A stretch of 64,000 nt of DNA, taken from positions 64,001 to 128,000 of the forward strand of contig OZ241863.1 of NCBI GenBank assembly GCA_965203055.1. Direction: 5' to 3'. Positions 23,290 through 42,383 of the stretch are shown here, piece by piece (the first letter of the stretch is position 1; every line of letters starts with the position of its first letter). Under the pieces are notes generated by a model. The model was not told the origin of the DNA. It ran no database searches and worked only from the letters and a program-made list of their open reading frames with translations. Made by a program: the position numbers and the translations under genes. The DNA is from Spirochaetia bacterium. GTDB lineage: Bacteria; Spirochaetota; Spirochaetia; SZUA-6; Bin103.

Positions 23290-23295
23290 CCTTCT

Positions 23296-24294: not shown

Positions 24295-24312
24295 GCCGTC
24301 AACCGCCGCGGA

Positions 24313-26061
24313 CTACTCCACGGCGTCGCAGAACACCAGTTCCCAGCCGTGGAACACCAAGGTCAGGCCGGTGAAGCGCACGCCGGGATACTGCCGCGCC
24401 AGCCGCTGGTCCGCCAGATAGCGCCGGAGCTGCGCCGCTGCCTCCGCGGCCGCCGCCGCCACGCCGGCCGCGGCCGCCGACTCGCCGCGCTTGAGGTACT
24501 TGAGCTCGATCAGGTAGCCGTAGCGGAGGTGCGGAAAGGCGGCTACCAGCGGCTCCAGCGCGATGTCCGCGTGCCCCTTGCCCAGCTCCGCCTCCGAGCG
24601 GAACTCGTAGAAGTCGGTCACGCTCAGGTAGGCTGCCAGAAATCCCTGGATCACCTTCTCCCCGGCGATGTAGTCCCGAATCCCCGTCTGCCGCGCAATC
24701 GCCTCGCTCAGAAACTCGAACACCGGCCGCCACTCTCCCTCGTTCGCCATCCGCATCAACAACTGCTCGAAGCGAAACAGGTTCACTGAAAAGACCTTCA
24801 CGTCGCGGTAGCCGTCGCGCAGGAAGCCGTACATCAGCCGCTTTACGGTCTGGTTGGGGATCGCCAGCCGAGGCAGGCCGCCAGGCGCACCGCGGATGCT
24901 CAACAAGCCGAAGAAGTGCAGCAGCGAGAGGAAGTTTTCCGGTTCGGCAAGCCGTTCCAGCGGGAAGCCGGGCTGGATGCGGGCGGCTGCCTGCTCCTCG
25001 CCAATGACGTCCCGCAGCAGATCGAAGTTGCCGTTCAACTGCCGGCCGACCACCAGCAGGTGGCGCAGCTTGCCGTAGTCGATGCGCACGTTGGTGTCGA
25101 TCAGGTACTTGGGTACCCGGCGGTTGGGGATGGAGTACTTGAGATAATAGAGCACCATGTCGGAGTTGTAGAGGTCGGTCGATGCCTCTTCGGAGAAGCG
25201 GTAGCCATTGTACCACTCGCCCATGATGCCCAGCGCGGTGTCGGCGTCCTGGTTGAAGACGCCCAGGTCGCGGTACGTCTCGACCAGGCGCCGCACCTCC
25301 GCCGCGGTGAAGCCGACCATCTCGTTGAAGTCCGGTTCCAGGCTGATGTTGGCGCCGATGTTGAAGCCGCTGGTGACGTCGTCCATGGTGACCGGCGACA
25401 CGCCGGTGATGAACAGGCGCTCCAGGCCTCCCCCGATGCGGTCGGCGCCGCCCTTGAGGGCGGCGAAGAAGTTGCGGTAGAAGCCGCCGCCGTGGGTGAA
25501 GGAATGGTACGCCTCGGCGCCGTGCCAGGCCAGCACGGTGTTGGCGAAGTTGTCGTACTCGTCGATCAGCACGTACAGCGGGATGTCGTGGTCGCCCGCG
25601 TACCGGAACAGCGCGGAAAGCCTGGTGGCGATGGACGGCCGGGCGAGGATGTCGCGTACCGCCTCTGCGGGAAACAGGTCAGGGTGCCTCCGCAGCGTCC
25701 CCTGGAGTTCGACGTCGCAGTAACTTTCGAACTCCCGCTCCAAGGTTTCGAGCTTGTCGTTGACCATAGAGAAGTTGAAGCGCAGGGTGACGTAGCGGCT
25801 GCGTTCCTCGGTCGGGCTGCGCCCGATGTCGGTGCCGGCGTACGTGGCGTCGAAGCGGTCGGCCCAGAAGCGGTCGTAGTAGCTCTCCAGCAGCGCCACC
25901 CACAGTGACTTGCCGAAGCGCCGCGGGCGAATCAGGAAGGCGTAGCGCTCCTGTTCCAGGCGGCGCAGGAAGCGGGTCTTGTCGACGTACAGCCACCGGT
26001 TCAGGCGGATGCGGCTGAATGACGCCTCACCGTAGGGAATGCGCGGATAAGCAGGTACCAT
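24313..26061 (-). CDS. AAA-ATPase-like domain plus C-terminal PD-(D/E)XK nuclease
   Basis: IPYG, YVDKT, RPRRFGKS, LIDEYD, ITGVSP...TSGFN, WYNGY and IPN. C-terminal SE...G-x-AD...IELK. Confidence 0.9.
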   Translation of the reverse strand: MVPAYPRIPYGEASFSRIRLNRWLYVDKTRFLRRLEQERYAFLIRPRRFGKSLWVALLESYYDRFWADRFDATYAGTDIGRSPTEERSRYVTLRFNFSMVNDKLETLEREFESYCDVELQGTLRRHPDLFPAEAVRDILARPSIATRLSALFRYAGDHDIPLYVLIDEYDNFANTVLAWHGAEAYHSFTHGGGFYRNFFAALKGGADRIGGGLERLFITGVSPVTMDDVTSGFNIGANISLEPDFNEMVGFTAAEVRRLVETYRDLGVFNQDADTALGIMGEWYNGYRFSEEASTDLYNSDMVLYYLKYSIPNRRVPKYLIDTNVRIDYGKLRHLLVVGRQLNGNFDLLRDVIGEEQAAARIQPGFPLERLAEPENFLSLLHFFGLLSIRGAPGGLPRLAIPNQTVKRLMYGFLRDGYRDVKVFSVNLFRFEQLLMRMANEGEWRPVFEFLSEAIARQTGIRDYIAGEKVIQGFLAAYLSVTDFYEFRSEAELGKGHADIALEPLVAAFPHLRYGYLIELKYLKRGESAAAAGVAAAAAEAAAQLRRYLADQRLARQYPGVRFTGLTLVFHGWELVFCDAVE

Positions 26062-26069
26062 GACTGCGG

Positions 26070-27689
26070 TCAGACCGACGGGGCGACGATCCGGGCGATG
26101 GCGGCGCGCATCCAGCCGGTAGCGGCCAGATCGGCCGGCCGCAGATCGAAGCCGGTCAAGTAGCTGGGCCGATGGGACTTCATGCTCAGAAACTGGTAGA
26201 ACCGCTCGAAGTCATCGGCAGCGGTCGCCACCGTAATCTCCTCGATAGCCCGCGCCTTTAGCTCTTTGGAGAACGTCTTGATGATCTCGTAGCTGTTGCG
26301 ATTCTTCTCCAGGCTGACCAGCAGGCGGTCCCGCACCGTGCGCATGGTCATGGCGATCGCGCTCAGATAGCGCGACCGGTCGAAACCGGCCGGAGCGAGC
26401 TCCGCTACGTTGTCAGGATGATAGAGATAGTTCTCGATACAATAGTGGCGCAGCACCAGCAAACGCGGACGGTTGCGGCGTATCTCGTCGAGCTCCTCGG
26501 TGCCCAGAAAGTCACGGTCGATCAGGCCGTGAAACCCGTCCGTTCCTGCCGTCTGGATAGAGATCGAATTCTTGTCCTGTGCGGAAATGAACAATGTGTC
26601 CTGCAGGCCGATCGCATTGTAGAGCAAGGCGTCCTTATTCTCGCACAGGATCAGACGCTTGTTTGGAAACACCTTGAGCGCCGAGCTGCGCGGTACGGCG
26701 ATATCGAATACGCGCTCGGTCTTCGGGGCAGGCCGCAGCACCTGCGGCCGATCGAAGTCCAAATCGTCGAAGTCGACGATCGCGGTGTCGCTGCTGGAGC
26801 TTCCGTAGTCGATGAACCCGAGCGAGTGGCTGGCCGTCCACAGTTGCGAGTGTTCGGGAATCCAGCGCTCCACGATCTCCTGCAGCAGAGCGTACTGCAG
26901 CCGGGTATGCAGGTGCACGTCCAGCTCGTCGATGAAGTAGATGGCATTGGCGAAGTGCTCGCGTCGCACGAACAGGTTGAGCAGGATATTGAAGACCTCC
27001 TTCTCGCCGCTGCTGAGCAGGTCGTAGTGGACCTCGGAATGCCCTTTGCTGAATCGAATGTCCGGCGGCTTTCGATCCAGCGCCGGAATCATACCGGTCA
27101 GGCGCAGAGTGGTGGCGTCACCATTGCCGAATACCCTGGCCATCGCGTCGTTGATCGGCTCGAGGAAGCGCGCCTTCATCTGCTCGGAGTCGAATCGCTC
27201 TCCCCACACCTCGCGCAGGATGCGCGCGGTGACGTGCGAGATGTCGGCCTCGAAGCGAGTGTCCCACTCTATCGACCGCTGCGGGCGGTCGTCGTCCGCC
27301 GGCAGGTCGACGGTGCGGCCATTTCGGTGCCGGAGCTCCGGGACCGTTCGGAGCGAACTTCTGCCGTAGAACGCGTCCTTGAGATTCAGGTTGGGAGGTG
27401 TAGGGGCGACCGATCCGTTCGTCCTGCGGAGGGATGCTCCACCACCGAACGAGCAGGAGACCGCTACCTCCTCGTCCCAGTCCTTCTTGAAGTAGCTCAA
27501 GTAATCGTTACGACCGACTCCCTTGGAGGGACCGGAAAGAAACTCGAACGCATCGAATACGGATGACTTTCCGCTCCCGTTCGCGCCGATCAGCAGCACC
27601 AGCTTTGGCGCCGAGGCGCACGCTGACAGATCAATCTCAAGATCGGTAAACCGCTTGAAGTTCGTGAGATGGAGGTTGCTGATGTTCAT
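26070..27689 (-). CDS. ABC/SMC-type ATPase fused to a TOPRIM-like (OLD/DUF4435-like) domain
   Basis: NFKRF, GANGSGKSS, LSSGEKE, IDELDVHLH and ASHS. C-terminal LCE-x-x-D, IDRD and CIENY motifs. Confidence 0.75.
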   Translation of the reverse strand: MNISNLHLTNFKRFTDLEIDLSACASAPKLVLLIGANGSGKSSVFDAFEFLSGPSKGVGRNDYLSYFKKDWDEEVAVSCSFGGGASLRRTNGSVAPTPPNLNLKDAFYGRSSLRTVPELRHRNGRTVDLPADDDRPQRSIEWDTRFEADISHVTARILREVWGERFDSEQMKARFLEPINDAMARVFGNGDATTLRLTGMIPALDRKPPDIRFSKGHSEVHYDLLSSGEKEVFNILLNLFVRREHFANAIYFIDELDVHLHTRLQYALLQEIVERWIPEHSQLWTASHSLGFIDYGSSSSDTAIVDFDDLDFDRPQVLRPAPKTERVFDIAVPRSSALKVFPNKRLILCENKDALLYNAIGLQDTLFISAQDKNSISIQTAGTDGFHGLIDRDFLGTEELDEIRRNRPRLLVLRHYCIENYLYHPDNVAELAPAGFDRSRYLSAIAMTMRTVRDRLLVSLEKNRNSYEIIKTFSKELKARAIEEITVATAADDFERFYQFLSMKSHRPSYLTGFDLRPADLAATGWMRAAIARIVAPSV

Positions 27690-27869
27690 CTTTTACGCCG
27701 CGCATCATACGCGAACGATCGTGATTCGGCAAACAGGCGCAGGATCGGCACGGATCGGCACTGTGGGAAGCAACTGCCGGGGCCGACGGCGACTCCGCCT
27801 TGCGCCGGTGTGGCGCAAGCGGCGGGTGACGACCGAACGCCTCGACCGGGCACGTGATACGATGTCGGG

Positions 27870-28601
27870 GTGATGATCGATGCCATCTTCTTCGATTGGG
27901 ACGGTACGCTGATGGACGACGACGCGAGTTGGCGTCGATGCGTGTCGGCCGCGGCCGGCGCGGTCGCGCACCGCTGCCACGTCGATCCCGGCGAGCTGAC
28001 CGCCGCGTACCATGCGGCCGCGCAGCGCCTCTGGGAGGAAGTCAAGAACGTCAGCGGGCCGCCGTGGGGGAACACGGACGACCGCTGCCTCGTACGGCGG
28101 ACGTGGAACGCGGCCCTGCGCCGGCCGCACGCCTCCGGCGAGGCCGAGGCCGCGGCTGCGCAGGCGGTCGAAATCTACCTCCGGCTCAGATCGAAGGAGA
28201 CGCCGATCTACGATGACGTCGTCGATTGCCTGAGCGCCCTGCGCGGCCGCTATCGGCTTGGCGTGATTACCAACGGCTCGAACGCGACCCATCTTCCGAA
28301 GGTCGAAGCCTCCGGCCTGGGCCGCTACTTCGGTTCCGTGACCACCACCGACGTCGGTTCCGGCAAGCCGTTCCGGCCGATCTTCGCTCATGCGCTGGCC
28401 TCCCTGGATGCCGTACCGGCGCGCGCGCTCTACGTCGGCGACTGGCCGTTCGCGGACGTCGGCGGCGCCAATGGCGCCGGGATGTTTTCCGTGTGGATCA
28501 ACCGGACCGGCGCCGCGCTCCGTCCCGACGACCCGGTCCCGGACGCGCAGATCACCTCCCTGCGCGACCTGCCGCGCGTACTCGCCCGCCTGCAGGCATA
28601 G
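27870..28601 (+). CDS. HAD superfamily hydrolase
   Basis: FDWDGTL, ITNG, GKP and VGD-x-x-x-x-DV-x-GA. Confidence 0.92.
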   Translation: MMIDAIFFDWDGTLMDDDASWRRCVSAAAGAVAHRCHVDPGELTAAYHAAAQRLWEEVKNVSGPPWGNTDDRCLVRRTWNAALRRPHASGEAEAAAAQAVEIYLRLRSKETPIYDDVVDCLSALRGRYRLGVITNGSNATHLPKVEASGLGRYFGSVTTTDVGSGKPFRPIFAHALASLDAVPARALYVGDWPFADVGGANGAGMFSVWINRTGAALRPDDPVPDAQITSLRDLPRVLARLQA

Positions 28602-28623
28602 CCGCCGCGGCGGCATTCTTCGG

Positions 28624-29985
28624 TCAGTCCACCGCCGGCAGCTCCGCCAACGCCTCGGCGATGCGCTCCTGCGGATACTCGTAGTTGACGAGCTGGCCGT
28701 CGAGGAACGAGCGGTACGCCTGCATGTCGAAGTGCCCGTGGCCGCACAGGTTGAAGGCGATCACCCGCGACTCGCCGGCCTCCTTGCAGCGCAGCGCTTC
28801 CTCGATGGCGACGTGAACGGCGTGCGCGGGCTCCGGCGCGGGCACGATCCCCTCGGTGCGCGCGAACAGCCGGGCCGCCTCGAACACCGGCACCTGCGGC
28901 ACGGCGCGCGCTTCGATCACGCCCAGGTCGTGCAGATGGCAGACCAGCGGCGCCATCCCGTGGTAGCGCAGGCCGCCGGCGTGAATCGGGGCCGGCACGA
29001 AGGAATGGCCCAGCGTGTACATCTTGAGCAGCGGCGTGGTGGCCGCCGCGTCGCCGAAGTCGTAGCGGTACTGTCCGCCGGTCAGGCTGGGCGCCGCCTG
29101 CGGCTCGACCGCCACGAAGCGCGTGGCGCGCGCGCCGCTCAGATTGGCGGGCACGAACGGGAAGATGAACCCGCCGAACGAGGAGCCGCCGCCGGTGCAG
29201 CCGACCATGACGTCGGGGTAGACGCCGGCGCGCTCGAACTGCGCCTGCGCCTCCAGGCCGATCACGGTCTGATGCAACAGCACGTGATTGAGCACCGATC
29301 CCAGGCAGTACTTCTTGCTGCCGCCGCTGGCGGCCGCCGCTTCCACCGCCTCCGAGATGGCGATGCCGAGCGATCCCGGCGAATCGGGCTGCCGCTCCAG
29401 CACCTGCCGGCCGGCGTTGGTGGCGGGCGACGGACTGGCGGTGACGCCGGCGCCGTAGGCCTCCATCATCGAACGGCGGTACGGCTTGCCGTCGTAGGAG
29501 ACGCGCACCATGTACACCTCGCAGTCGACGCCCAGGAACGCGCCGGCCATCGCCAGCGCGCTGCCCCACTGTCCGGCGCCGGTCTCGGTGGTGAGCTGCG
29601 TCACCCCTTCCTCGCGGTTGTAGAACGCCTGCGCCACCGCCGTGTTGGGCTTGTGCGAGCCGACCGGCGAGACGCCCTCGTACTTGTAGTAGAGGCGCGC
29701 GGGGGTATCGAGCTCCCGTTCCAGGCGCCGCGCCCGGAACAGCGGCGTCGGGCGCCACAGCCGGTAGATCTCGCGGATCGGCTCCGGAATCGGTATCTCC
29801 CGCTCCCGGCTGACCTCCTGCTCGATCAGCGCCAGTGCGAACAGCGGCGCCAGGTCATCGGGACCGATCGGGTCCATCCGGCCCGGATGGATCACCGGCG
29901 GCAACGGTTCCGGCAGGTCGGCCTGGATGTTGTACCAGGAGGCGGGAATCTCGGACTGCGGCAGATCGAAGCGAATCGTCTCCAT
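28624..29985 (-). CDS. trpB2: TrpB2 (tryptophan synthase beta-like PLP enzyme)
   Basis: [43 protein letters not shown] and GHGHFD. AGGAG RBS present. Confidence 0.93.
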
Positions 29986-30065
29986 CGTTTCTCCTCATCG
30001 TATTATCATAGCGCTGCTGCGGGCCATGATACCGCAAGCGACCGGAAAGGGAGCGACAGGCACAC

Positions 30066-30176
30066 GTGACGCGCAAGAAGCCGGCCAAGCGCCCGGACAA
30101 CTACCGGCACCCGGAAGCCGGGGCGCTGCTGCGCCCGGACATCGGCACCCAGCCGCGCGCGGTATCTGACCCGTGA
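30066..30176 (+). pseudogene. 36-codon remnant resembling the N-terminus of a site-specific DNA methyltransferase (type III Mod-like)
   Basis: GTG...TRKKPAKRPDNYRHPEAGALLRPDIGTQ, with the stop overlapping the next start (GTGA). The family resemblance is from recall and needs a search. Confidence 0.45.
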
Positions 30177-31108
30177 TCCGGTCGGTTCGCATCCGCGGCT
30201 TCAAGCGGTTCGGCGAGGTCGAGTTCCGGCTGCCGGGGCACGTCGTGCTGGCCGGGCCCAACGACACCGGCAAGACCACGCTGCTGCAGGCGGTCGCGGC
30301 ATGGGCGCTCGCCCTGCGGCGCTGGCGGGAGCTCAACGACTTCAATCGCCGCAACGGCTACCGGCGGGCGCCGCTTGCCCGCCAGGCGTTCGCGGCGGTG
30401 CCGGTGCGCAACTTCGACCTGCTGTGGACCGACTGCCGCTACCGCGGGCAGATCGAGATCGAGCTGCGTCACGACGCCGGCTGGGCGGTGACGATGGAGT
30501 TGATCCCCGACAGCAGCGAACAGATCTACGTGCGACCGGCGAGTTCCTCGTCCGGCGACCTGCGCCGGATCGATCCGCAGGTGGTGTTCGTGCCGCCGAT
30601 GACCGGCCTCGGCACCGACGAACCGGTGCTGCAAGCCCCCAAGATCGAACAGCTTCTCGGCATCGGGCGGCCGGGTGAGGTGCTCCGCAACCTGCTGGCC
30701 GAGGCGAACCGCGACGCGGCGGCATGGGACGCGCTGCAGGCAACGATCGGCAAGCTGTTCGGCTATCGGCTGCTGCCGCCCGACGCCAGCGGCGCGCACA
30801 TCCGCGCGGAATACACCGTGACCGATCAGGGGCCGCCGTTCGACGTGGCCAGCGCCGGCAGCGGATTCCAACAGGTCCTGATGCTGCTGGCGTTTCTCAC
30901 CACCCGTCGCCGCGCCGTCCTGCTGCTGGACGAACCCGACGCCCATCTGCACGTGATCCTGCAAGACGCGATCTACCATGAGTTGCGCAGCGCCGCCGCC
31001 CGCCGCGGCTCGCAGCTCATCGTGGCCACCCATTCGGAAGTGGTCATCAACGCCGTCGAGCCGCGCGAACTCATTCGAGTCGACGCCCCTGGCACTAAGT
31101 ATCACTAA
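30173..31108 (+). CDS. ABC-type (AAA_15/AAA_21-like) ATPase, probably C-terminally truncated
   Basis: GFKRF, GPNDTGKTT, AGSGFQQ, LLDEPDAHLH and ATHSE. Ends just after the H-loop where base composition shifts. Confidence 0.75.
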   Translation: MIRSVRIRGFKRFGEVEFRLPGHVVLAGPNDTGKTTLLQAVAAWALALRRWRELNDFNRRNGYRRAPLARQAFAAVPVRNFDLLWTDCRYRGQIEIELRHDAGWAVTMELIPDSSEQIYVRPASSSSGDLRRIDPQVVFVPPMTGLGTDEPVLQAPKIEQLLGIGRPGEVLRNLLAEANRDAAAWDALQATIGKLFGYRLLPPDASGAHIRAEYTVTDQGPPFDVASAGSGFQQVLMLLAFLTTRRRAVLLLDEPDAHLHVILQDAIYHELRSAAARRGSQLIVATHSEVVINAVEPRELIRVDAPGTKYH

Positions 31109-31159
31109 GATTGTCGGGTATGTAAGTTTGGTCACCCATTATGGGATACATAGAAGCCG

Positions 31160-32044
31160 ATGGACTCACCGAAGACACCGATTGACTTGTTCGGGCGCCC
31201 GGCGTACGTCCGGCCAAACGGGTCGCTGCTCAAGTGGATCGGCAACAAGTATAAGGTCGCAGAGGAGATTACCTCCTATTTCCCGGCCGAGATGCGGGCC
31301 TTCTACGACGTGTTTGTCGGCGGCGGTTCAATCCTGGCCACGGTAGCGCCGGCTCGCGGCGTGGGGTCGGACTCATTCGCGCCCTTGATCGAAATATGGA
31401 GCATGATTCGGTCCGATCCCGCTGTGGTCAAAGGGTGGTACGAGCAGCGCTGGCGGTATGCCATGTCGGGGGACCGCCGGGAGCGGTATGAAGAGATCAA
31501 GGCTTCATACAACGCCCGGTCGAATGGAGCCGACTTCCTGTATCTCACCCGCGCTTGCTACGGCGGCGTCATCAGGTTCAGGAAGCATGACGGTTATATG
31601 TCCACGCCGGTGGGCATTCATCGGCCCATCGAGCCCCGCAACTTCGCCAAGCGGGTGGACGAATGGCACGTGAGAGTACAAGGCACCGAGTTTATTCGTG
31701 CCGATTATGCCGACGTAATGGAACGCTGTGAGGCCGGAGATATGGTCTATTGCGACCCTCCGTATACCCACAGTCAAGCTATTTTGTATGGCGCCCAGGA
31801 CTTCAGCATCGTTCAGTTGTTCGAGTCGATCGAACGCTGCAAGACGCGAGGTGTTCGCGTCGCCCTGAGCATCGATGGTACCAAGAAGTCCGGGAGTGAG
31901 AACTGCCATGTTCCCATACCGGAAGGGTTGTTCGAGCGGCAGATCCTGGTCAAGACCGGGAGATCGATGCTGCGGCGCTTTCAGATGGATGGCCAGACCC
32001 TGGAGTCGGAGGTCGTGGCGGATCGCCTATTGCTGACGTACTAA
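31160..32044 (+). CDS. Dam/D12-class DNA adenine methyltransferase (orphan)
   Basis: LLKWIGNK, motif I DVFVGGGS and motif IV VYCDPPY in alpha-class order. Confidence 0.9.
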   Translation: MDSPKTPIDLFGRPAYVRPNGSLLKWIGNKYKVAEEITSYFPAEMRAFYDVFVGGGSILATVAPARGVGSDSFAPLIEIWSMIRSDPAVVKGWYEQRWRYAMSGDRRERYEEIKASYNARSNGADFLYLTRACYGGVIRFRKHDGYMSTPVGIHRPIEPRNFAKRVDEWHVRVQGTEFIRADYADVMERCEAGDMVYCDPPYTHSQAILYGAQDFSIVQLFESIERCKTRGVRVALSIDGTKKSGSENCHVPIPEGLFERQILVKTGRSMLRRFQMDGQTLESEVVADRLLLTY

Positions 32045-32062
32045 GCTCCTGATGGCGATCAG

Positions 32063-34357
32063 TCAGATGGAGGAAGCTTCAAGGGCATCCCAAAATCGCC
32101 GTATCTGTGGCGGCACGTCGCTTGCTTTGTTTGCTCCTGACATGATCTTTTCCGGCGGAAACTGTCTGCGCAAGAACTCCTTGGCTGGCCCTGAAGCTGA
32201 TTTTCGATCGATCGTCACTATACCGTGCTCAAGGAGAAGCCTGCGTAACCTGCGCCAGCGCCAGGAATCATGAAACAGACGACCCCCATCATCAACGTCG
32301 TAGATCGGATTCGCTCGCTCGTATGCGCGCATCAGCCATTCGAGCAATTCCATTGATCGATCCGACACGTTCCGCCTATCTTGATCTGAATCAGTATCTA
32401 CCGATGTTCCACAATCGGACAGCACACGCATGATCTTATCGGGAATACGTATTGTCTCCTTTCCCTTATCGATCAGACTCTGAACTCCAGCGACATCACG
32501 TGGAACCCGGAGTCCATTCAGTTCCAGCCGGGTGCTCCCGACCTCCACCATTGGCTCCTCGAGCAAGATGTTGTGTGCGTAACACTCTACAAACTTCGTG
32601 GCTCCCAAATTCGTCCGTCGTACTGTAACGCCGTCCAGCGTACAATTTCGCAAAGTGACGCCGGAAAGATCACCGCCGGGAAAGATTACGTTACTTATCT
32701 TGAGCCCTGCTATGTCAGCCTCGTTGTTCGACCCGAATGCCTTCAACAAGGCCAAGACGATCAGTCCGGCATTTTCCCGAACCTGAGACGCTCGTCGCCA
32801 TTCGTCACGTCCCGCCATCGCCAGACGGTTCAGCATTACTTGAAGATCATCAAGAGTTGACAAGGTGTCGTTTGTCATCACCTCTGCTGCAAATCGTTCA
32901 GCGACCAACTCGGGCAACGCAGCGCGACTCAGGATCGCACGCAGGTCTGAATTCGAACCGTACTGCTCGGCAATAACACGGGCAAGGAAGTAGAAGAAAT
33001 AGACCTCATGCTCGAACCCGATCGTCTCATGCTTCTCACTGTGGGTGAGAAATGCAAGTGTCGGCATCCGTTCAATGATGATCTGTCTCTCAGACTCGTC
33101 AATTTCATCGTGAAGAAAAAACTCTGCGACTTCCCTTACGGATACACCATCGAGCTCGCGGGTCTCCTGGTTCCACATCTCTTCGGCAAGTTCTCGTACG
33201 ATCATTTCAAGCTGATCTTCGGACAACAGCGGTCGCTGTTGGCGATCGAGGATCTTCTCCGCCTGTTCCCGCTTCAGGAAGCTATGGATCAAGGTGTCAA
33301 GCAAGTTGCCATCTTCAGAAAATTCGCTACCCGTTAGTACCAAATCGACAGTCTTGGCAAAGAACAGCGGCTTATCCATGAGATGACTATCTTGTTGGAA
33401 CGCCGCGCGGACTTTTTTTCGTAACTCATTCTTCCTTTCCGTCGGCAGCGAGTATTGACGCGCGATCTCATTCAGGTAGTCTGACCGGTGGGCGTCGTCC
33501 CACGGCGCTATCTCCACGGGTATGTGCGACCATCGCTGTTTCCCCGTCGCAGCGGCTCGGTCGGCGCGCCGGAGGAACTCTTCCTCGTAATAAGTTGATC
33601 TAGCTGAGGTAATTATTCTACCGTAGCCATCCAGTTGTTCCAGAAAAGTCGCCAGAGTACTGAAGGCGTCATCATACCCACTGACCCCTAGAAGCTCGTC
33701 GAATCCGTCTATCACGGGCACCAACAGTCCTACGCGGACCAGGGTTGCAACGGAATGGTAAGTCAGGTTGACCCTCAGATCCTGCAGTTCCGTAGCAAGC
33801 GCTTCGTGCAGCCGCGCCAGGGCGCGGCCTTGCGCATTCACATATAGCAGCAACTTTCCCGTACTGCCGCGCAGGTACCGGTCGGCCTGTTGCCAGACCA
33901 GCTCCTGTAGCACCCGCGTCTTGCCGGCGCCGGCGCCGCCGGTGGCCATGATGACCTCGGTCACATCAGGCTCGTCATCTTCCATGAGTTCAGTGAGCAA
34001 CTCCGTGGCGGGTTGGGGTCCTTTCAGCACCCCGCCCCCATCCGGGCAGCGAGCTCCGGTAGGAACGAATATTTTGTCTTGTCTGGACCGATAGATCATG
34101 CGAGCGACATGCTTCAGATCTGCCATCCGTGTATCCGCAAGAAAAACGGTATACGGCAGGGTCGTACCGTTGGCGCTTGCGGTAACCTCGTGGTCTCGCG
34201 AAACCGTAAAATTAGCTTCCCGAGGTTCGCCGCGCATTTGCCACTCGGCCTGGAGTCTCCTCCCCGTTGCAGAGATCACGTGGATACCACCCGGGTCTGC
34301 AAATGACGTCAGGTCGCTTTCGATGCGCTCGAGGTCTGCGTCGTATGTCTCGCGCAC
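32063..34357 (-). CDS. NACHT/STAND-like P-loop NTPase with pentapeptide-like repeats
   Basis: Walker A GGAGAGKT, Walker B VIDGFDEL, ITSAR sensor, KPLF and F-x-HE motifs. Repeat-like VIFPGGDLSGVTLRNCTLDGVTVRRTNL. GTG start with GGGGAG 8 nt upstream. Confidence 0.8.
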   Translation of the reverse strand: MRETYDADLERIESDLTSFADPGGIHVISATGRRLQAEWQMRGEPREANFTVSRDHEVTASANGTTLPYTVFLADTRMADLKHVARMIYRSRQDKIFVPTGARCPDGGGVLKGPQPATELLTELMEDDEPDVTEVIMATGGAGAGKTRVLQELVWQQADRYLRGSTGKLLLYVNAQGRALARLHEALATELQDLRVNLTYHSVATLVRVGLLVPVIDGFDELLGVSGYDDAFSTLATFLEQLDGYGRIITSARSTYYEEEFLRRADRAAATGKQRWSHIPVEIAPWDDAHRSDYLNEIARQYSLPTERKNELRKKVRAAFQQDSHLMDKPLFFAKTVDLVLTGSEFSEDGNLLDTLIHSFLKREQAEKILDRQQRPLLSEDQLEMIVRELAEEMWNQETRELDGVSVREVAEFFLHDEIDESERQIIIERMPTLAFLTHSEKHETIGFEHEVYFFYFLARVIAEQYGSNSDLRAILSRAALPELVAERFAAEVMTNDTLSTLDDLQVMLNRLAMAGRDEWRRASQVRENAGLIVLALLKAFGSNNEADIAGLKISNVIFPGGDLSGVTLRNCTLDGVTVRRTNLGATKFVECYAHNILLEEPMVEVGSTRLELNGLRVPRDVAGVQSLIDKGKETIRIPDKIMRVLSDCGTSVDTDSDQDRRNVSDRSMELLEWLMRAYERANPIYDVDDGGRLFHDSWRWRRLRRLLLEHGIVTIDRKSASGPAKEFLRRQFPPEKIMSGANKASDVPPQIRRFWDALEASSI

Positions 34358-34361
34358 TTGA

Positions 34362-34961
34362 TCAGCTCCCCAGTTGATGGACGGTAAGCCCCTCGCTGAC
34401 CAGCGCAGCGTCATTCATCGCTGAACCGACCTCTCTGGTACGCATCCATACGACCGCATCGGGGTGGCCTGCGTGCGCTGAGAGCGCGCCCGGGAGAAGA
34501 TCGTCATCGTCTGTCACAATGCCAACACAGGTCCGCGCCTGCGCCGCGGCATATAGCGCATCGCAGGCCAGCATGCCGTCTACCATTTTCTGTACGTAGC
34601 GGCGGTCGGTGCCGCTCCCGGTGGGAGGCCGCATCCGGCGCCGCACCGTGCCTCGCGGGTGAAACATCGGGAATTGGATCATCGAGGTGGCAAGCGCCGG
34701 ACGGACGATCAGGCCATTGCGCCGGCCGCGCAGCACCGGCAGCAACTCATGCAGCCATGACGCATGGCGGCTCGGCCATCCCTGCTCAGTGATCCATCCT
34801 CCGTACAGCCGGAGATCGAGCTCGCGCGCGTCCGGGAACAGGGTTGCGAACGCGCGAGACACCTGCTCCACGATGGTCAGAGTAACGAGTTCCAGATCAG
34901 CTTTCGAGTTCTGGTCACGGCGGCGAAAATTGTACCAGTCGACAAGAGCCAGCCCTTGCAT
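34362..34961 (-). CDS. NYN/PIN-fold putative ribonuclease
   Basis: LVDWYN, QKMVD-x-x-L-x-x-D and IVTDDDDLLP match the acidic-residue pattern of NYN/LabA-DUF88 PIN-like domains. Confidence 0.75.
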   Translation of the reverse strand: MQGLALVDWYNFRRRDQNSKADLELVTLTIVEQVSRAFATLFPDARELDLRLYGGWITEQGWPSRHASWLHELLPVLRGRRNGLIVRPALATSMIQFPMFHPRGTVRRRMRPPTGSGTDRRYVQKMVDGMLACDALYAAAQARTCVGIVTDDDDLLPGALSAHAGHPDAVVWMRTREVGSAMNDAALVSEGLTVHQLGS

Positions 34962-35105
34962 GAGTTACTACCCAACCCAATATACGACCTGGAGCGGGGG
35001 GTCAGCTTTGGGAAGCGGCCGGCCCGCCCGGTAGTGGTACGCGACGGGCCGGCTGCCGGTAATGGTGACGGAGGCGCTCCGGTTGCCGTTAGCCCACCCG
35101 CCTGA

Positions 35106-35189
35106 TGCCCGGAAGAGGACTCGAACCTCCACAGCCGTACGGCCACCAGACCCTGAACCTGGCGTGTCTACCAATTTCACCATCCGGGC
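35106..35189 (-). tRNA. tRNA-Leu(CAG)
   Basis: GCCCGGA acceptor stem, TGGTAGAC D-loop, CCAGG-TT-CAG-GG-TCTGG anticodon arm, long variable arm and GGTTCGAGTCC. CCA not encoded. Confidence 0.96.
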
Positions 35190-35203
35190 AGGATGACGGT
35201 AAC

Positions 35204-35232
35204 AACCTACCCCTGCCCGGCACTCCTGTCAA
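35204..35232 (-). promoter_or_regulatory. Sigma70-like promoter of tRNA-Leu
   Basis: Minus strand TTGACA, 17-bp spacer, TAGGTT, 14 nt upstream of the tRNA 5' end. Confidence 0.65.
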
Positions 35233-35283
35233 GACCTTGAGACGAGACGAGACGAGATCTGCGCCGCGCGGCGGGAGCGCCGG

Positions 35284-36951
35284 TCAGGCGGGGGCGGCGG
35301 CCCCCTGGCCGACGGTATCGGTCGGGCCGGTGAAGCCGGGACCGCCGGCCGCCACGTAGCCGCGGCTGGCGCCGGAGCGGTCCGGGCTCACCCAGAAGGA
35401 GTACAGCGCCGCGTCGCGCAGGTGGAAGCGCAGCCGCACCGGCCGGCCCGCGAGTTCCGCCAGGCCGCCGGCATTGCCCCAGGTGACCGCCTGCCGGGTG
35501 GCATCGCCGGTCACCGGCGCGCAGCGCTCGCGTGAGCAATGGCCGAGCGGGTTGCCGGCGGCGTCCAGCGCCTCCACCCGCAGCTCGCCGCCCGCCGCGG
35601 CGGCGTTGACGAACAGGTGGCGGCCGCTGAAGCGCAGCGGGCGGGTGGTCAACGTGCCGCCGTCGGCGCCGGCCGCATGGGACACGAAGCCGTCGCGGCG
35701 CAGGGTCGCCAGGCCGGTGCTGCCGCCGGCGTACATGTGCGCGCCGAGCTTCGGCGAGACGCCGGAGAAGGCGCCGAAGTAGAGGTAGAGCCGGTCGCCG
35801 ACGATCAGACAGCACCCGCCGCAGGAGTGGATGTAGTCGCGGTTCCAGTCGCCCGGCTGGTGGGTGCCGGCCACGATCGGCAGGCGGTCGCGGCGGTCGA
35901 AGTGGAACCCGTCCCGGCTGTAGCCCACCAGCAGCTCGGTGATCTTGGGAAACCCGCCGGCCTCGCAGATCTCGTTGGGCGGCCCGCGGTGGATCATGAA
36001 GAAACCCAGCATGAGACTCTCGTAGCCCACGGCATCGATGTTGTAGAGCTGGGTCGGGTAACCGTGTTCCGGGGCCGGCGGGTCCAGATCGTCGGCGCCG
36101 GCCCAGTGGGCGACTTGCTCCGGTTCCCAGGCGGCGCCGGCGAACAGGTCCGGGTGCTCGTGGTAGCCGCGCAGGCGCCCGACCGCCGGAGCGCTGGTGC
36201 GGATGCTGTATACCCAGCGCTTGCGGAACGGGTTGTAGAAGATGGTGGTATTGTCGCCGCCGCGGCCGGTGGCGGCGCGTTCGCGCCAGTGGATGCCGTC
36301 CGCCGAGGAATAGACGTGGCCGCCCACCCACTCGTTGGCGGTGCCGGGGCCGCCCAGCTCGCCGTAGCGGAAGCCGGCGCCGCGCCGGCGGTGGTAGGCG
36401 AACATCTTGAAGCGTTCCGCGGCGCGCGCGGCCTCCTGATCGAGCCATACTCCGACGCCGTCCCGCTGATAGCTGGGCCGTAGCGGCAGCACCCGGTTGG
36501 TACCCGGCTCCACGTCCAACTCCGGGCGCTCCCAATGCACGCCGTCGCGGCTGGTGGCCAACGCCACTCCGTCGAACCAGCCGGCGTGGTACCACAGCTT
36601 GAACAGCCCGTCCGCCGGATCGTAGAAGGCGCCGTCCTTGAATGGGCAGGCCGTGGGACACAGCCCGAAGTTCATTTCCAACGGGGTCTCCGGCACCAGC
36701 ACCGGGCTTGCCTCGTGCAGCACCGGGGTATGGAACTCGCGCCGCAGGGAACTCTCGGCGATCAGAAACTCATCCACCAGGAGTTGCCGCCCCACGTCGA
36801 TGGGGATCACCGCCGGCGGCCGCTCCAGGTAGGGGACCGGCCCCGGCTCCCGCGCCTCGCGCGCCAGCCCGCGCGGCGGCCACTCCGCAGGTTGCTCGAT
36901 CCCGTTGTAGCTCACCGCGCCTGTTTCTCCCGTGCCTTCGCCGTTGCCCAT
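35284..36951 (-). CDS. Beta-propeller glycoside hydrolase-like protein (GH32/GH43 clan-like)
   Basis: IDVGRQLLVD, FKLWY, Asp-box repeats SRDGVHW / SADGIHW / SRDGFHF, and LRRDGF. Confidence 0.7.
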   Translation of the reverse strand: MGNGEGTGETGAVSYNGIEQPAEWPPRGLAREAREPGPVPYLERPPAVIPIDVGRQLLVDEFLIAESSLRREFHTPVLHEASPVLVPETPLEMNFGLCPTACPFKDGAFYDPADGLFKLWYHAGWFDGVALATSRDGVHWERPELDVEPGTNRVLPLRPSYQRDGVGVWLDQEAARAAERFKMFAYHRRRGAGFRYGELGGPGTANEWVGGHVYSSADGIHWRERAATGRGGDNTTIFYNPFRKRWVYSIRTSAPAVGRLRGYHEHPDLFAGAAWEPEQVAHWAGADDLDPPAPEHGYPTQLYNIDAVGYESLMLGFFMIHRGPPNEICEAGGFPKITELLVGYSRDGFHFDRRDRLPIVAGTHQPGDWNRDYIHSCGGCCLIVGDRLYLYFGAFSGVSPKLGAHMYAGGSTGLATLRRDGFVSHAAGADGGTLTTRPLRFSGRHLFVNAAAAGGELRVEALDAAGNPLGHCSRERCAPVTGDATRQAVTWGNAGGLAELAGRPVRLRFHLRDAALYSFWVSPDRSGASRGYVAAGGPGFTGPTDTVGQGAAAPA

Positions 36952-37298
36952 ATCCGCTTCGCTTCCTCCTCGGTGACTTCGGTGCCGTCGAACACGAACG
37001 GCTTGCGCCGCTGCATCTTGGCCACCACCTGATCCAGCACTTCATGCGCCGCGAAGTAGCCGCTACGTTCCGCCAACAGCGCGCAGACTACGACGTCCCA
37101 CAGCAGATCGCCAAGTTCCTCGCGGAGATTCTCGTGGTCGCGGTTGGCGACCGCGAGCAGTACCTCGTCGGCTTCGGCGCGCAGCTCCGCCGCGTACTGC
37201 TCCACGGTGCGCGTCGTGGTCCACGGGCAGCGGGCCAGCACCTTGCGCGCCGCGGCCGCCAGTTCCACAAAGCTCTCCGTCACGAGTCGTTCGCTCAT
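36912..37298 (-). CDS. MazG-like nucleotide pyrophosphohydrolase (single domain)
   Basis: CPW, E-x-x-E, REELGDLL, K-x-x-RR-x-P-x-VF and W-x-x-x-K. Confidence 0.88.
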   Translation of the reverse strand: MSERLVTESFVELAAAARKVLARCPWTTTRTVEQYAAELRAEADEVLLAVANRDHENLREELGDLLWDVVVCALLAERSGYFAAHEVLDQVVAKMQRRKPFVFDGTEVTEEEAKRIWATAKAREKQAR

Positions 37299-37428
37299 CT
37301 GGAATCTCATCATCATTATATGCTGCGGCTGCCGGCTCCGCATCGGAGCCGCTGCCCGCCGCCGGCGGTGAATGAATGGACCCGGTCGATTCGGCCGTGG
37401 TATGACCCACGGCGTGGAGCAGCTCCCA

Positions 37429-37893
37429 ATGATCTCCCTGCGCGTCAACGGCGCGGCGCGCCGCGTGCCGGCGCCGCCCGACACCCCGTTGCTGCTGGTG
37501 CTGCGCAACGACCTGCAGCTCGGCAGCCCCAAGTACGGCTGCGGCGCGGAGCAGTGCGGGGCCTGCATGGTGCTGATCGACGGCAACGCGGCGCCCACCT
37601 GCCGGCTGCCGGTGAGCGCCGCCGCGGGGCGCGAGATCGTCACCGTCGAAGGGCTGGCGCCGGGCAGCGCCCTGCACCCGGTTCAGCAGGCGTTCATCGA
37701 CGGCAACGCAGTGCAGTGCGGCTACTGCGCGAGCGGCGTAATGATTGCGGGCGCGGCGCTGCTGGCGCGCAACCCGACGCCCACGCGGGCCGAGATCCAG
37801 GCGGCCCTGGACCGCAACATCTGCCGGTGCGGGGCGCACAACCGCATGATCGCCGCGCTCCGGCGGGCCGCGGCCGCCGCGGCCGCGGACTGA
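37429..37893 (+). CDS. (2Fe-2S)-binding small subunit of a molybdenum hydroxylase
   Basis: KYGCGAEQCGAC, QCGYC and NICRCG. Confidence 0.92.
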   Translation: MISLRVNGAARRVPAPPDTPLLLVLRNDLQLGSPKYGCGAEQCGACMVLIDGNAAPTCRLPVSAAAGREIVTVEGLAPGSALHPVQQAFIDGNAVQCGYCASGVMIAGAALLARNPTPTRAEIQAALDRNICRCGAHNRMIAALRRAAAAAAAD

Positions 37894-41303: not shown

Positions 41304-41372
41304 TTGACCGCGATACCGCCGGCTGCTGCAAGCGAACGTTCGTTCCGCCCGCAGAGGCAGTATATTCAGCGG

Positions 41373-42383
41373 GTGAAGTCCACGAATTCGGCGCCGGCTC
41401 GCGCGCGGGGCGCCCCGCCGCCTCCCGTCGAAGCTGCCGGCCTGGTGAAGCGGTACGGGCAGGTGACCGCGCTGGACGGTCTCGACCTGAGCGTGTCCGA
41501 GGGAACCGTGCTCGGCCTGCTTGGTCCGAACGGCGCGGGCAAGACCACCGCGGTGTCGATTCTGGCCACGCTGATCACGCCGGACGCCGGCAGCGCGCGG
41601 ATCACCGGCGTCGACGTGGTGGCGAAGCCGCGCTCGGTGCGGCGCCGCATTGGTCTGTCAGGACAGTTCGCCGCGGTGGACGAGCACCTCACCGGGTTCG
41701 AAAACCTCGACATGATCGGGCGCCTCTACCATCTGGGCCGCGCGCGCGCCCGGGCCCGCGCCGCCGAGCTGCTCGACCTGTTCGATCTGACAGCCGCCGG
41801 CGGGCGCCCGGTAAAGACCTACTCGGGCGGGATGCGGCGGCGCCTCGACCTGGCCGGCGCCCTGGTGGCGGCGCCGCCGGTGCTGTTTCTGGACGAGCCC
41901 ACTACCGGCCTCGACCCGCACAGCCGACGCCAACTCTGGGAGGTGATCCGGCGCATGGTCGGCGGCGGCACCACGGTGCTGCTCACTACCCAGTACCTGG
42001 AGGAGGCGGACCAGCTCGCCGACCGCATCCTGGTGATCGACCACGGCAAGGCGATTGCCGAGGGCACCCCCGACGAGTTGAAGAGTCTGGTGGGCGCGGA
42101 GCGGATCGAGGTCACGGTGACCGCCGGCGAGGACGGAACCGGCGGCGGCGCGCTGCAGCGCGCGCAACGGTTGCTGGCCCGCTTCGCGGTTGGCGAGCAG
42201 CAGGTGGACCGGCGCGCGCGGTCGCTGATCATGCCGGTCGAAGGAGGGCCGGGAGTGCTTGCCCAGGCGCTGCGCGAGCTGGACCGGGCGCAGATTGCGG
42301 TGCAGGACGTCGGGCTGCGCCGCCCGACGCTGGATGACGTGTTCCTGACCCTGACCGGACATGCCACCGAGGAGGAGCAATGA
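41373..42383 (+). CDS. DrrA-like ABC exporter ATP-binding protein
   Basis: GPNGAGKTT, YSGGMRRRLDLA, DEPTTGLDP, TTQYLEEAD and PTLDDVFL-x-LTG. Confidence 0.92.
   Translation: MKSTNSAPARARGAPPPPVEAAGLVKRYGQVTALDGLDLSVSEGTVLGLLGPNGAGKTTAVSILATLITPDAGSARITGVDVVAKPRSVRRRIGLSGQFAAVDEHLTGFENLDMIGRLYHLGRARARARAAELLDLFDLTAAGGRPVKTYSGGMRRRLDLAGALVAAPPVLFLDEPTTGLDPHSRRQLWEVIRRMVGGGTTVLLTTQYLEEADQLADRILVIDHGKAIAEGTPDELKSLVGAERIEVTVTAGEDGTGGGALQRAQRLLARFAVGEQQVDRRARSLIMPVEGGPGVLAQALRELDRAQIAVQDVGLRRPTLDDVFLTLTGHATEEEQ

Follow-up and report, generated by a model that had tools for sequence, protein, structure and literature searches.

A Conserved Two-Gene Cassette Pairing a Divergent NYN/PIN-Like Protein With a NACHT-Clade NTPase, a Possible Two-Subunit NLR-Like Defence Module

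Introduction

Among prokaryotic proteins, the bacterial relatives of NLRs come closest to the inflammasome sensors of animals. Avs/AVAST proteins, which bear some likeness to the locus described below, combine a STAND ATPase, a sensor at the C-terminus and a nuclease that acts as the effector after oligomerisation, while differing from it in that they form other STAND clades and have fused effectors. Pentapeptide-repeat proteins such as Qnr, MfpA and the McbG-like proteins are free-standing DNA mimics acting on gyrase. In bacterial NACHT (bNACHT) proteins, the effectors are described as fused, mostly N-terminal, domains, and the Walker B signature of the NACHT module is D[GAS]hDE (Kibby et al., bioRxiv 10.1101/2022.07.19.500537). 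According to the part of this preprint covered here, the sensor types include pentapeptide repeats, the effectors include RNases, with Schlafen and HEPN being named and the term "NYN" being absent from that text, and the proteins tested to date are anti-phage (bioRxiv 10.1101/2022.07.19.500537). Effectors encoded by a neighbouring gene can be found in the EAD-coupled STAND conflict systems, where, in the sections considered, coupling is ensured by an adaptor domain common to the STAND NTPase and its effector (Kaur et al., eLife 2021, PMC8195603).

The two genes examined here lie in a window of 64,000 nucleotides (the whole stretch of DNA analysed) from a Spirochaetia bacterium. As judged from the covered part of the bNACHT preprint, they have in common with bNACHT proteins the D[GAS]hDE signature of the NACHT module (here DGFDE) and a division into three parts, an effector, the NACHT module and a C-terminal sensor, whereas the putative effector is here a separate, strictly co-conserved gene (24/24 loci). 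They also resemble the EAD-coupled systems, in which a STAND NTPase has its effector in a neighbouring gene; in contrast, no adaptor domain shared by the two proteins was detected when their family alignments were compared (hhalign A1 vs A2, probability 0.3%), and the predicted contact is made by the NACHT core. No model of PADLOC 2.0.0 or NCBIfam 20.0 names either protein, in agreement with the earlier note on this DNA, which could not match the pair to a named system: the sole PADLOC match to the pair is mad8 (E 0.016), the NCBIfam matches fall far below their cut-offs, and none of the PADLOC Avs models is matched at E≤0.1. A description of an NYN and NACHT pair was not found in the literature searched, subscription journals and bioRxiv supplements being outside its reach, and the NTPase clade may be included in the supplementary table of about 20,000 NACHT proteins of the bNACHT preprint.

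Gene Organization and Genomic Context

Both genes are on the minus strand and form a single unit (Table 1). The stop codon TGA of the small gene (34364-34362) is followed by 4 nt (34361-34358) and then by the GTG codon at 34357. From its first ATG, the NTPase reading frame would span 32063..34414 (minus strand, 783 aa), but the GTG is taken as the start because the N-termini of 34 homologues agree with it (alignment A2). The arrangement claimed in the earlier note, with a 199-aa reading frame ending 4 nt before a 764-aa NTPase whose ribosome-binding site lies inside the first gene, can be read directly from the coordinates and the GGGGAG sequence. The position of this site and the short junctions inferred for the window as well as for 23 homologous loci, varying between 8 nt of overlap and 12 nt of spacing, suggest translational coupling of the NTPase to the small gene.

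Table 1. Coordinates of the two genes, of the NTPase domains and of the adjoining tRNA gene.
Feature	Positions	Strand	Basis or remark
Small gene, 199 aa	34362..34961	-	ORF; divergent stand-alone NYN/PIN-like predicted metallonuclease
NTPase gene, 764 aa from GTG	32063..34357	-	ORF
GGGGAG, ribosome-binding site for NTPase	34366..34371	-	Within 3' end of small gene, 8 nt before GTG
NTPase N-terminal alpha+beta domain, residues 1-115, no family match	34013..34357	-	AF2 secondary structure
NACHT module, residues ~116-545	32723..34012	-	Pfam, Foldseek, invariant residues
Pentapeptide-repeat beta-helix, residues ~546-636, presumed sensor surface	32450..32722	-	Profile, AF2
C-terminal alpha/beta domain, residues ~637-764 + stop codon, no family match	32063..32449	-	AF2
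tRNA-Leu(CAG)	35104..35190	-	ARAGORN; context, outside the module

The pair is found directly 3' of the tRNA-Leu(CAG) gene, the 3' end of which is 142 nt upstream of the start of the small gene. The GC content is 0.51-0.63 over 32000-34999, both genes being low, as compared with 0.72 over 35000-35499 and 0.69-0.71 over 30000-30999, which bears out the observation that the genes are lower in GC than their flanks and sit beside a tRNA. The tRNA-Leu site may be an integration hot spot. A search of 22000-35400 for direct repeats of the 3' end of this tRNA, as expected of att sites, gave no hit, so that no island boundary is marked by such a repeat. In the interval separating the tRNA from the small gene, a promoter and terminator scan revealed nothing promoter-like, the counts not exceeding the shuffle expectation. 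The pair adjoins a Dam-like methyltransferase and ABC-type ATPases matching PADLOC models.

A Divergent Member of the NYN/PIN-Like Superfamily

The small protein itself has no direct match in Pfam, PADLOC or NCBIfam; against Pfam, no family is reached at E≤0.1 or at E≤10, and the NYN model is unmatched. Among its close relatives, only one of 32 matches NYN (E 0.096). The protein has 168 relatives, and an exhaustive profile search (A1) extends the family to 896 clusters at 50% identity. When 95 aligned divergent relatives are considered, NYN (PF01936) is matched by 68 of them at E≤1, with a best value of 4.3e-8, the next most frequent Pfam family being found in 3/95. The AF2 model (pLDDT 86.4) shows alternating strands and helices, with a low-confidence loop around residues 105-125. 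Its most probable Foldseek matches in the PDB are VPA0982 (2qip, prob 0.98) and, at 0.97 and 0.91, the NYN domains of MARF1, with all E-values above 1e-3 (3e-3 or worse) and TM scores of 0.42-0.53 to NYN structures. A fold search of BFVD yielded no match at E≤1e-3, with an "NYN domain protein" at prob 0.91, and in the Atlas the top three clusters (score 0.90) carry NYN on 27-36% of their members.

Regarding individual residues, D8, Y53, G55, K125, D128, D134 and D152 are invariant in the wider family, and over the 95 sequences N11 and D154 reach a conservation of 90% or more. D8, D128, D134 and D152, invariant in the 95-sequence alignment, would be the conserved acidic residues expected of NYN metal binding. 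Together with K125 they fit what we take to be the canonical NYN motif pattern, in which strand 1 bears D..N, helix 3 bears K..D......D and D.D follows strand 4. LALVDWYNF, VQKMVDG and VTDDDDLLP can be read in the translation. Other motifs are specific to the family (RLYGGW, RGRR, and GTVR), and several invariant positions are rich in arginine (RGRR, R87, R107, R174, and R176). All motifs previously quoted for the two proteins (D-W-Y-N, QKMVD, TDDDD, GGAGAGKT, DGFDE, SAR, and FxHE) are present in the translations.

Through intermediate sequences and weak fold matches, the small protein is placed in the NYN/PIN-like superfamily. The assignment made in the earlier note is upheld by the 68/95 relatives matching NYN and by the invariant residues, but not by a Pfam match of the protein itself, and the fold matches are weak. 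Described NYN nucleases (PF01936; MARF1 NYN, 5yaa/6fdl; VPA0982, 2qip) resemble it weakly in fold and share its conserved residue pattern; unlike them, the window protein is too divergent for the Pfam NYN model and is bound to a NACHT protein in the prediction. Against PDB sequences, the family profiles gave only chance-level matches, including one to FliG (E 0.13). A nucleotidyltransferase was also considered, owing to a match to the CCA-adding enzyme 9ns4 via the GGW motif (E 0.15-0.36), and was rejected because this match extends over about 40 residues and both Pfam and the fold comparisons favour NYN.

A NACHT-Clade NTPase With Pentapeptide-Like Repeats

By sequence and modelled fold, the 764-aa protein is a NACHT-clade STAND protein with an NLR-like nucleotide-binding, helical and winged-helix architecture, the NACHT module being composed of a nucleotide-binding domain, a helical domain, a winged helix and a second helical domain. 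Its motifs are Walker A GGAGAGKT (K146), of the GxxxxGK[ST] type, Walker B VIDGFDE (D217-E221), SAR (R253) and FEHE (H450); VIDGFDELLG and GFEHE can be read in the translation, and GGAGAGKT and VIDGFDE are invariant in alignment A2. The family comprises at least 554 relatives. While Pfam NACHT scores 25.3 bits on the window NTPase, under the cut-off of 26.7, PF05729 (NACHT) is precomputed on 119 of the 120 homologues listed, the exception being P0239. Foldseek returned 371 matches with E≤1e-3 for the model, among them NLRC4 (E 2.8e-12) as well as NLRP3, NOD2, NLRP9, and NLRP14, all with prob 1.00.

The repeat region is likewise recognised at the level of the family. On the window NTPase, Pfam Pentapeptide reaches 18.4 bits (cut-off 20.2) and Pentapeptide_4 19.2 bits (cut-off 38), whereas, with the A2 profile, Qnr, MfpA, McbG-like and designed pentapeptide proteins are found over positions 533-609 (E 6e-5 to 3e-3), 13 such proteins of the PDB falling at E≤0.01. 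In the AF2 model, residues 553-636 form short strands stacked as a ladder, and PF13599 or PF00805 is precomputed on some homologues. The Foldseek match to NLRC4 and the A2 matches are in keeping with the initial description of a NACHT/STAND NTPase with pentapeptide-like repeats. In Qnr, MfpA and the McbG-like proteins the repeats are alike at the profile level, but here they span only about 90 residues and are inserted between the NACHT module and the C-terminal domain.

Neither end of the protein can be assigned to a family. Residues 1-115 and 640-764 have no Pfam match at E≤10 and contain no recognisable fused effector, and Atlas scores for residues 1-125 do not exceed 0.83, so that the earlier reading of the N-terminus, of which about 115 aa are concerned, as devoid of a recognisable effector holds. 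The C-terminal domain is made of helices followed by a beta-hairpin (714-731) in the AF2 model.

Conservation and Mobility of the Pair

The expected co-occurrence of the homologues was found in all 24 genome loci, where a homologue of the NTPase gene lies directly downstream of the small gene. These loci come from at least six phyla, the lineages being Latescibacterota, Spirochaetia, Binatia, several orders of Acidobacteriota, Gammaproteobacteria, Longimicrobium, and Methylobacteriaceae, and the pairing is kept down to 26% identity to the small protein of the window. The pairwise identities of the two proteins correlate (r = 0.956 over 21 intact pairs, a value reached by none of 2000 permutations), and the two genes are inherited as a unit. 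Besides them, no conserved neighbour was found across the 24 loci. The pair is inserted between hyuA and hyuB in one locus (L003) and between trpE and trpG in another (L021), and is bordered on either side by transposase genes in L002 and by integrase genes in L016. With no other conserved neighbour and such varied insertion sites, it fits a self-contained mobile cassette. Tandem or paralogous copies are present in L017 and L005. Frame breaks in L013, L022, L023 and one of the copies in L017 could be due to decay or assembly errors. Fused forms, in which the small protein is joined to the N-terminus of the NTPase, are rare (P0214, 971 aa, and the partial P0244) and could be sequencing or gene-calling artefacts.

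Most flanks of the pair consist of housekeeping genes, a mobile-element or defence-type gene being found within two genes of it in only 8/24 loci (a raw count with no baseline). Neither protein had a tblastn match in the plasmid and phage collections. Some apparent defence genes in the flanks were discarded: MzaA, called by PADLOC in L006, is a sigma-70 factor according to Pfam, and mad3/AriA in L005 is an ABC-transporter ATPase adjoining its permease. A cluster of ORFs from seven loci, to which 41304-42383 of the window belongs, was considered as a conserved partner and turned out to consist of ABC-transporter ATPases at varying positions.

Predicted Complex and Interface

Modelling of the small protein together with the NTPase, as proposed in the earlier note, predicts a complex with an ipSAE of 0.74, the best of three controls having 0.00. 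The score mark used is reached by 116/157 solved complexes and by 2/215 mismatched pairs, and is a rough guide here because the alignments were our own. Between prediction runs, at least 89% of the contacts are shared, and the pLDDT of the partner is at least 83. The model supports, rather than shows, binding of the small protein to the NTPase.

In this model, helix 65-77 and strand 84-90 of the small protein touch NTPase residues 178-201, 225-241 and 393-409. The contact spans three parts of the NACHT module, namely its nucleotide-binding domain (178-241), its winged-helix region (393-409) and its second helical domain (518-521), and the first helix of the N-terminal domain (residues 14, 18, and 22) also touches the small protein. 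The first two of these NACHT parts account for most of the predicted contact, which is not of the adaptor type. On the NTPase side, most of the interface consists of invariant stretches specific to the family (175-201, 224-242, and 393-409), and its conservation is 0.866 as compared with 0.662 for the rest of the protein (reached by 0/10000 random sets), which may simply reflect the ATPase core. On the side of the small protein, the values are 0.715 and 0.654 (reached by 1393/10000 random sets), with no difference in A3. No putative catalytic residue of the small protein is named in the predicted interface, so the model offers no mechanism for silencing the nuclease.

Proposed Function and Alternatives

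It seems about as probable as not that the pair constitutes a two-subunit NLR-like immune module with a non-covalently bound NYN effector. The 764-aa protein would act as sensor and switch, and the 199-aa protein as an NYN-type metal-dependent nuclease, most likely an RNase, filling the role of the N-terminal effector that is fused in other bacterial NACHT proteins. Co-produced through translational coupling, the two proteins would probably be held as a complex in the cell, the NYN protein resting, through its helix 2 and strand 3, on the nucleotide-binding and winged-helix regions of the NACHT module. Binding of a phage component to the pentapeptide/C-terminal region might then cause the module to swap its nucleotide, open and oligomerise, and the bound NYN subunits, clustered or rearranged, would cleave RNA, leading to growth arrest or cell death before the phage cycle ends. 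The choice of RNA as substrate is an inference, and the anti-phage, abortive-infection role is suggested by analogy. The natural fusions count in favour of an effector role because they place the small protein where the fused effectors of bNACHT proteins sit, as far as the covered part of the preprint describes them. On the other side stand the missing PADLOC and NCBIfam defence matches, the low count of mobile or defence-type neighbours, the absence of phage and plasmid matches, the failure of the window protein to match Pfam NYN, the interface of the small protein being no more conserved than its surroundings, and the frame breaks.

The tight gene coupling, the stable predicted contact and the mobile cassette would also suit a toxin-antitoxin-like sequestration, in which the resting NACHT protein holds an active NYN toxin and a trigger, or loss of the NTPase, frees the nuclease. 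The nucleotide-binding, winged-helix and second helical domains of NLRs shift relative to each other upon activation, and since the NYN contact spans these parts of the NTPase, release would be geometrically plausible. Sequestration is nevertheless judged unlikely: occlusion is not indicated because no putative catalytic residue is named in the interface, and in the natural fusions the nuclease stays covalently linked to the NTPase, as would suit clustering rather than release, and takes the place usual for an effector. Instead of the effector, the NYN-like protein could be a nucleic-acid sensor or adaptor, the killing falling to one of the two terminal domains of the NTPase or to a host factor. 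Two NTPase domains lack a recognisable family, and the arginine-rich invariant motifs could bind nucleic acid; yet what we take to be the NYN catalytic residue set is fully invariant over the 896-cluster family, which argues for retained catalysis, and the fusions put the small protein where effectors sit, making this role highly improbable.

A function outside immunity, as a STAND-regulated switch of RNA processing or stress response acting on the cell's own RNA, would accord with the mostly housekeeping flanks, the absence of matches in the defence libraries and the housekeeping roles of the NYN proteins Rae1/YacP and LabA. Such a switch is considered very unlikely in view of the patchy spread over at least six phyla, the insertions between operon partners, the transposase and integrase flanks, the tandem or paralogous copies, the GC content, which is low relative to the host, and the anti-phage activity of the bacterial NACHT proteins tested (bioRxiv 10.1101/2022.07.19.500537, in the part covered). 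Within the immune-module reading, a more elaborate version, rather improbable as a whole, would have the NYN protein bridge the nucleotide-binding domain, the winged helix and the second helical domain and be gated by the closed-to-open movement of the NACHT module, with neither adaptor nor covalent link, and the pentapeptide beta-helix, likened to the DNA-shaped surface of Qnr/MfpA, would mimic DNA and so act as bait for a DNA-binding protein of the phage.

Implications

In the present pair, the putative effector of the NACHT protein is a separate subunit predicted to sit on the ATPase core, as opposed to the fused domains described in the parts of the literature consulted. The pair would provide a simple system to study how a conformational change of NACHT reaches an enzyme, would extend the effector repertoire of NLR-like systems to NYN nucleases, and would give the 896 clusters of a family lacking annotation a probable role. 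Most members of the small-protein family come from little-studied soil and sediment phyla, an origin which suggests that defence catalogues built from cultured bacteria miss such modules.

Organization of the Gene Pair

A gene for a NYN-type candidate nuclease (the small protein), followed on the same strand by a gene for a NACHT/STAND NTPase, forms a genuine pair that lacks annotation and is widely distributed in little-studied phyla. Both ORFs lie where the earlier note had placed them, and all the motifs quoted there are found in the two translations. As also described in that note, the genes are 4 bases apart (TGA of the small gene at 34364-34362, GTG opening the NTPase frame at 34357) and the NTPase ribosome-binding site is located within the first gene, with GGGGAG at 34371-34366, 8 nt ahead of the GTG. 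An alternative ATG at 34414, upstream of this GTG, would make the NTPase 783 aa long; because 34 aligned homologues start at the GTG position, 764 aa is the better reading. The lower GC content of the pair (0.51-0.63 vs. 0.69-0.72 in the adjoining stretches) and the proximity of a tRNA gene are likewise as reported, and a search of 22000-35400 for an att repeat of this tRNA-Leu found none.

Features of the gene pair and its neighborhood in the window
Feature	Position	Strand	Basis or remark
Small ORF, 199 aa	34362-34961	-	ORF reading
NTPase ORF, 764 aa from GTG	32063-34357	-	ORF reading and homologue alignment
tRNA-Leu(CAG)	35104-35190	- (same as pair)	3' end faces the small gene
Dam-like D12 adenine methyltransferase	31160-32044	+	PADLOC MTase_II, E 2e-69
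AAA_21 ATPase and methyltransferase	30173-32044	+	ATPase first, with PADLOC NsnB 3e-23, AriA 1e-22, mad3 3e-19 for the ATPase
AAA_15/AAA_21 ABC-type ATPase, weak DUF4435 tail	26070-27689	-	PADLOC AriAB, E 3.4e-20; PARIS-like fused form
AAA-ATPase_like protein with PDDEXK_9 nuclease domain	24313-26061	-	Starts 9 nt after the 26070-27689 gene
MazG-type nucleotide pyrophosphohydrolase domain	36912-37643	-	E 7e-20; C-terminal part of ORF

Pairing and Surroundings in Other Genomes

When one genome per species was scanned, 24 loci with homologues of the small gene were obtained, spanning Latescibacterota, Spirochaetia, Binatia, Vicinamibacterales, Bryobacterales, Thermoanaerobaculia, other Acidobacteriota, Gammaproteobacteria, Longimicrobium, and Methylobacteriaceae. 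In 24/24 loci the NTPase-family profile matches the ORF directly downstream of the small gene, i.e., the homologues co-occur, a point that the earlier note had left to gene-neighborhood analysis. The pairing holds in Methylobacteriaceae (three loci), whose small proteins share only 26-28% identity with that of the window. When each NTPase is taken to begin at whichever start codon lies closest to profile position 1, the two genes overlap by up to 8 nt or are separated by up to 12 nt in 23 loci and in the window, and the remaining locus, L013, reads as a single fused frame. One-frame joins with the small protein N-terminal are found in the predicted proteins P0214 (971 aa) and P0244 (partial). 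Frame breaks occur in one or both genes at loci L013, L022, and L023, and at L017 (9935-15944, plus strand) there are two tandem copies of the entire pair, the first NTPase copy being split by a frame break. Over 21 intact pairs (L013, L017, L022, and L023 left out), the correlation between the pairwise identities of the small protein and those of the NTPase is r = 0.956, a value reached by 0/2000 permutations; this shows the two genes to travel together, short of proof of co-evolution. Of the 120 small-protein clusters listed, 30 have a longest contig identical in length to that of an NTPase cluster, of which 120 were likewise listed. A second, far more distant pair in the Vicinamibacterales genome of L005 (15473-18465, minus strand; profile E 7e-14 for the small protein and 2e-57 for the NTPase), on the opposite strand at a distance of 2.5 kb, suggests that pairs of this kind make up a wider superfamily.

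By ORF clustering over all loci, nothing besides the pair is conserved around it, with the exception of antisense shadows, synteny in three related Vicinamibacterales and a family of scattered ABC ATPases. The flanking genes, scanned two per side with PADLOC (96 proteins) and Pfam (88/96 proteins, 8 from L013 and L018 being left out as syntenic with L008), are mostly housekeeping. The pair is found between hyuA and hyuB at L003 (7502-14738) and between trpE and trpG at L021 (8084-14468); hyuA and hyuB are normally adjacent, as are trpE and trpG, and both positions look like clean cassette insertions. Transposase genes are present on both sides of the pair at L002, two integrase genes enclose it at L016, and an IS4/5 transposase adjoins it at L011, as do DarT and its NADAR partner at L015. 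A DruA-domain protein is encoded near the pair at L007, a locus in which a transposase ORF extends into the small gene (predicted protein P0242), and DNA methyltransferases are found nearby at L017, L023, and L019. A mobile-element or defense-type neighbor is present in 8/24 loci, a raw count with no baseline from which enrichment is not claimed. The picture is that of a compact cassette inserting at many places.

The Small Protein

While the small protein has no direct match in Pfam, PADLOC or NCBIfam, homology searches place it in a family that is large and well conserved. A word-indexed search gave 168 relatives of ~190 aa each, and an exhaustive profile search 896 clusters at 50% identity (E ≤ 1e-3), 339 of which reach 1e-10. 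The PIN/NYN assignment made in the earlier note is upheld through these relatives, since 68 of the 95 divergent members that were aligned and scanned singly match the NYN domain at E ≤ 1 (best E 4.3e-8) and the next commonest Pfam family matches 3/95. The AlphaFold model (pLDDT 86.4, pTM 0.83) has alternating strands and helices. A PDB fold search with this model gave nothing at E ≤ 1e-3; the top-probability matches, all with E above 1e-3, are the NYN-type VPA0982 (2qip; probability 0.98, TM 0.42/0.50) and the MARF1 NYN domains (5yaa, 0.97; 6fdl, 0.91). In the ESM Atlas, the three nearest clusters (score 0.90) have NYN on 27-36% of their members.

Over the 95 sequences, D8, Y53, G55, K125, D128, D134, and D152 are invariant, with conservation of 90% or more at N11, D154, N183, and D184. 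These positions reproduce what we take to be the NYN pattern (D..N in the first strand, K..D in the third helix, D.D after the fourth strand). The small protein is thus a divergent but probably active NYN-type nuclease, and by analogy with the family its substrate would be RNA. At residues 9-10, the clade of the window has W-Y and most of the family x-D (VDWYN vs. VDYDN); D8 and N11 are kept in this variant, and D10 falls outside the set with ≥90% conservation. A weak likeness to a CCA-adding enzyme (9ns4, E 0.15-0.36), between the invariant RLYGGW (residues 51-56) and a GGW motif region, was judged to be due to chance.

The NTPase

The NTPase of the window falls just under the Pfam NACHT cut-off (25.3 vs. 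26.7 bits), and 119/120 listed homologues carry a precomputed NACHT annotation. The alignment shows no variation in Walker A (GGAGAGKT) or Walker B (VIDGFDE), and the latter fits the D[GAS]hDE signature described as setting NACHT apart from other STAND clades (Kibby et al., bioRxiv 10.1101/2022.07.19.500537). The predicted model (pLDDT 82.1) matches NLRC4 at E 2.8e-12 as well as NLRP3, NOD2, NLRP9, and NLRP14, with 371 matches in total at E ≤ 1e-3, so that the NACHT/STAND reading of the earlier note stands. Its repeat-like stretch consists of pentapeptide repeats: profile positions 533-609 of the family match Qnr, MfpA, McbG-like and designed pentapeptide proteins (E 6e-5 to 3e-3), and strands at residues 553-636 of the model form a ladder. 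No Pfam family is found for residues 1-115 and 640-764 even at E ≤ 10, and the ESM Atlas gave nothing above 0.83 for the N-terminal part, in which no effector had been recognized before either. In the pentapeptide and C-terminal region, C572, C592, and C649 are invariant; a fourth cysteine at position 686 is nearly invariant in the family and is Tyr in the window protein.

Predicted Complex and Possible Mode of Action

No domain is common to the two families (hhalign probability 0.3%), and adaptor-type coupling is therefore unsupported. Complex modeling, a check suggested in the earlier note, was performed on both full-length proteins with their own alignments and gave a score of 0.74, the best of three controls reaching 0.00. 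This score is reached by 116/157 solved complexes and 2/215 mismatched pairs, counts that are only a rough guide because custom alignments were used. Agreement between runs is 89% of contacts or better, with a partner pLDDT of at least 83, and the model supports, short of showing it, binding of the small protein to the NTPase. The predicted NTPase contacts are residues 14, 18, 22, and 268, further residues within 178-201, 225-241, and 393-409, and 443, 518, 520, and 521. Invariant contacts in family-specific stretches include R178, R182, E185, Y200, H201, G227, Y228, D230, Q397, T399, and D403. This interface is more conserved than the rest of the NTPase (0.866 vs. 0.662; 0/10000 random sets equal). 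The small protein contributes E47, D49, R51, and residues of the 60-101 stretch, the RGRR motif among them; these contacts show no significant conservation difference from the rest of the protein, and none of the putative catalytic residues is among the named interface residues.

Among known kinds of system, the bNACHT family comes closest; its listed sensors include pentapeptide repeats and the listed fused effectors include the RNases Schlafen and HEPN, the tested genes being described as only rarely found in poorly conserved operons (Kibby et al., bioRxiv 10.1101/2022.07.19.500537). Neither protein is named by any PADLOC 2.0.0 or NCBIfam 20.0 model, and no description of a NYN plus NACHT pair was found in the literature searched; the earlier note had found no named system either. 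In its logic, the pair is what would be expected of an NLR-like system.

Of the readings considered, a two-subunit NLR-like module is the best supported; in it, the NYN protein would stand in for the effector that other bacterial NACHT proteins carry fused at the N-terminus. This protein would be made in step with the NTPase, held on the ATPase core of the latter, and switched on once the sensor region encounters a phage component and the NACHT module oligomerizes; the trigger, substrate, activation step, and defense phenotype are those that we infer. The main rival, a toxin-antitoxin-like release of the nuclease, fits an interface spanning parts that move on activation, but is less easily reconciled with the fusions of the two proteins. 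A non-immune regulatory role of the module and a NYN protein acting as a sensor are two less probable alternatives.

Other Genes in the Window

The methyltransferase gene is convergent with the pair, leaving 18 nt between its end and the stop codon of the NTPase gene, and has a lower GC content (0.57-0.60) than the AAA_21 ATPase gene, which is host-like (~0.70). The MazG-type ORF, whose true start is probably internal because the domain fills its C-terminal part, is placed between a glycoside-hydrolase-sized ORF (35284-36951) with no Pfam match and a 2Fe-2S subunit gene. The two minus-strand genes at 24313-27689 (GC 0.59-0.65) look like a second candidate defense pair.
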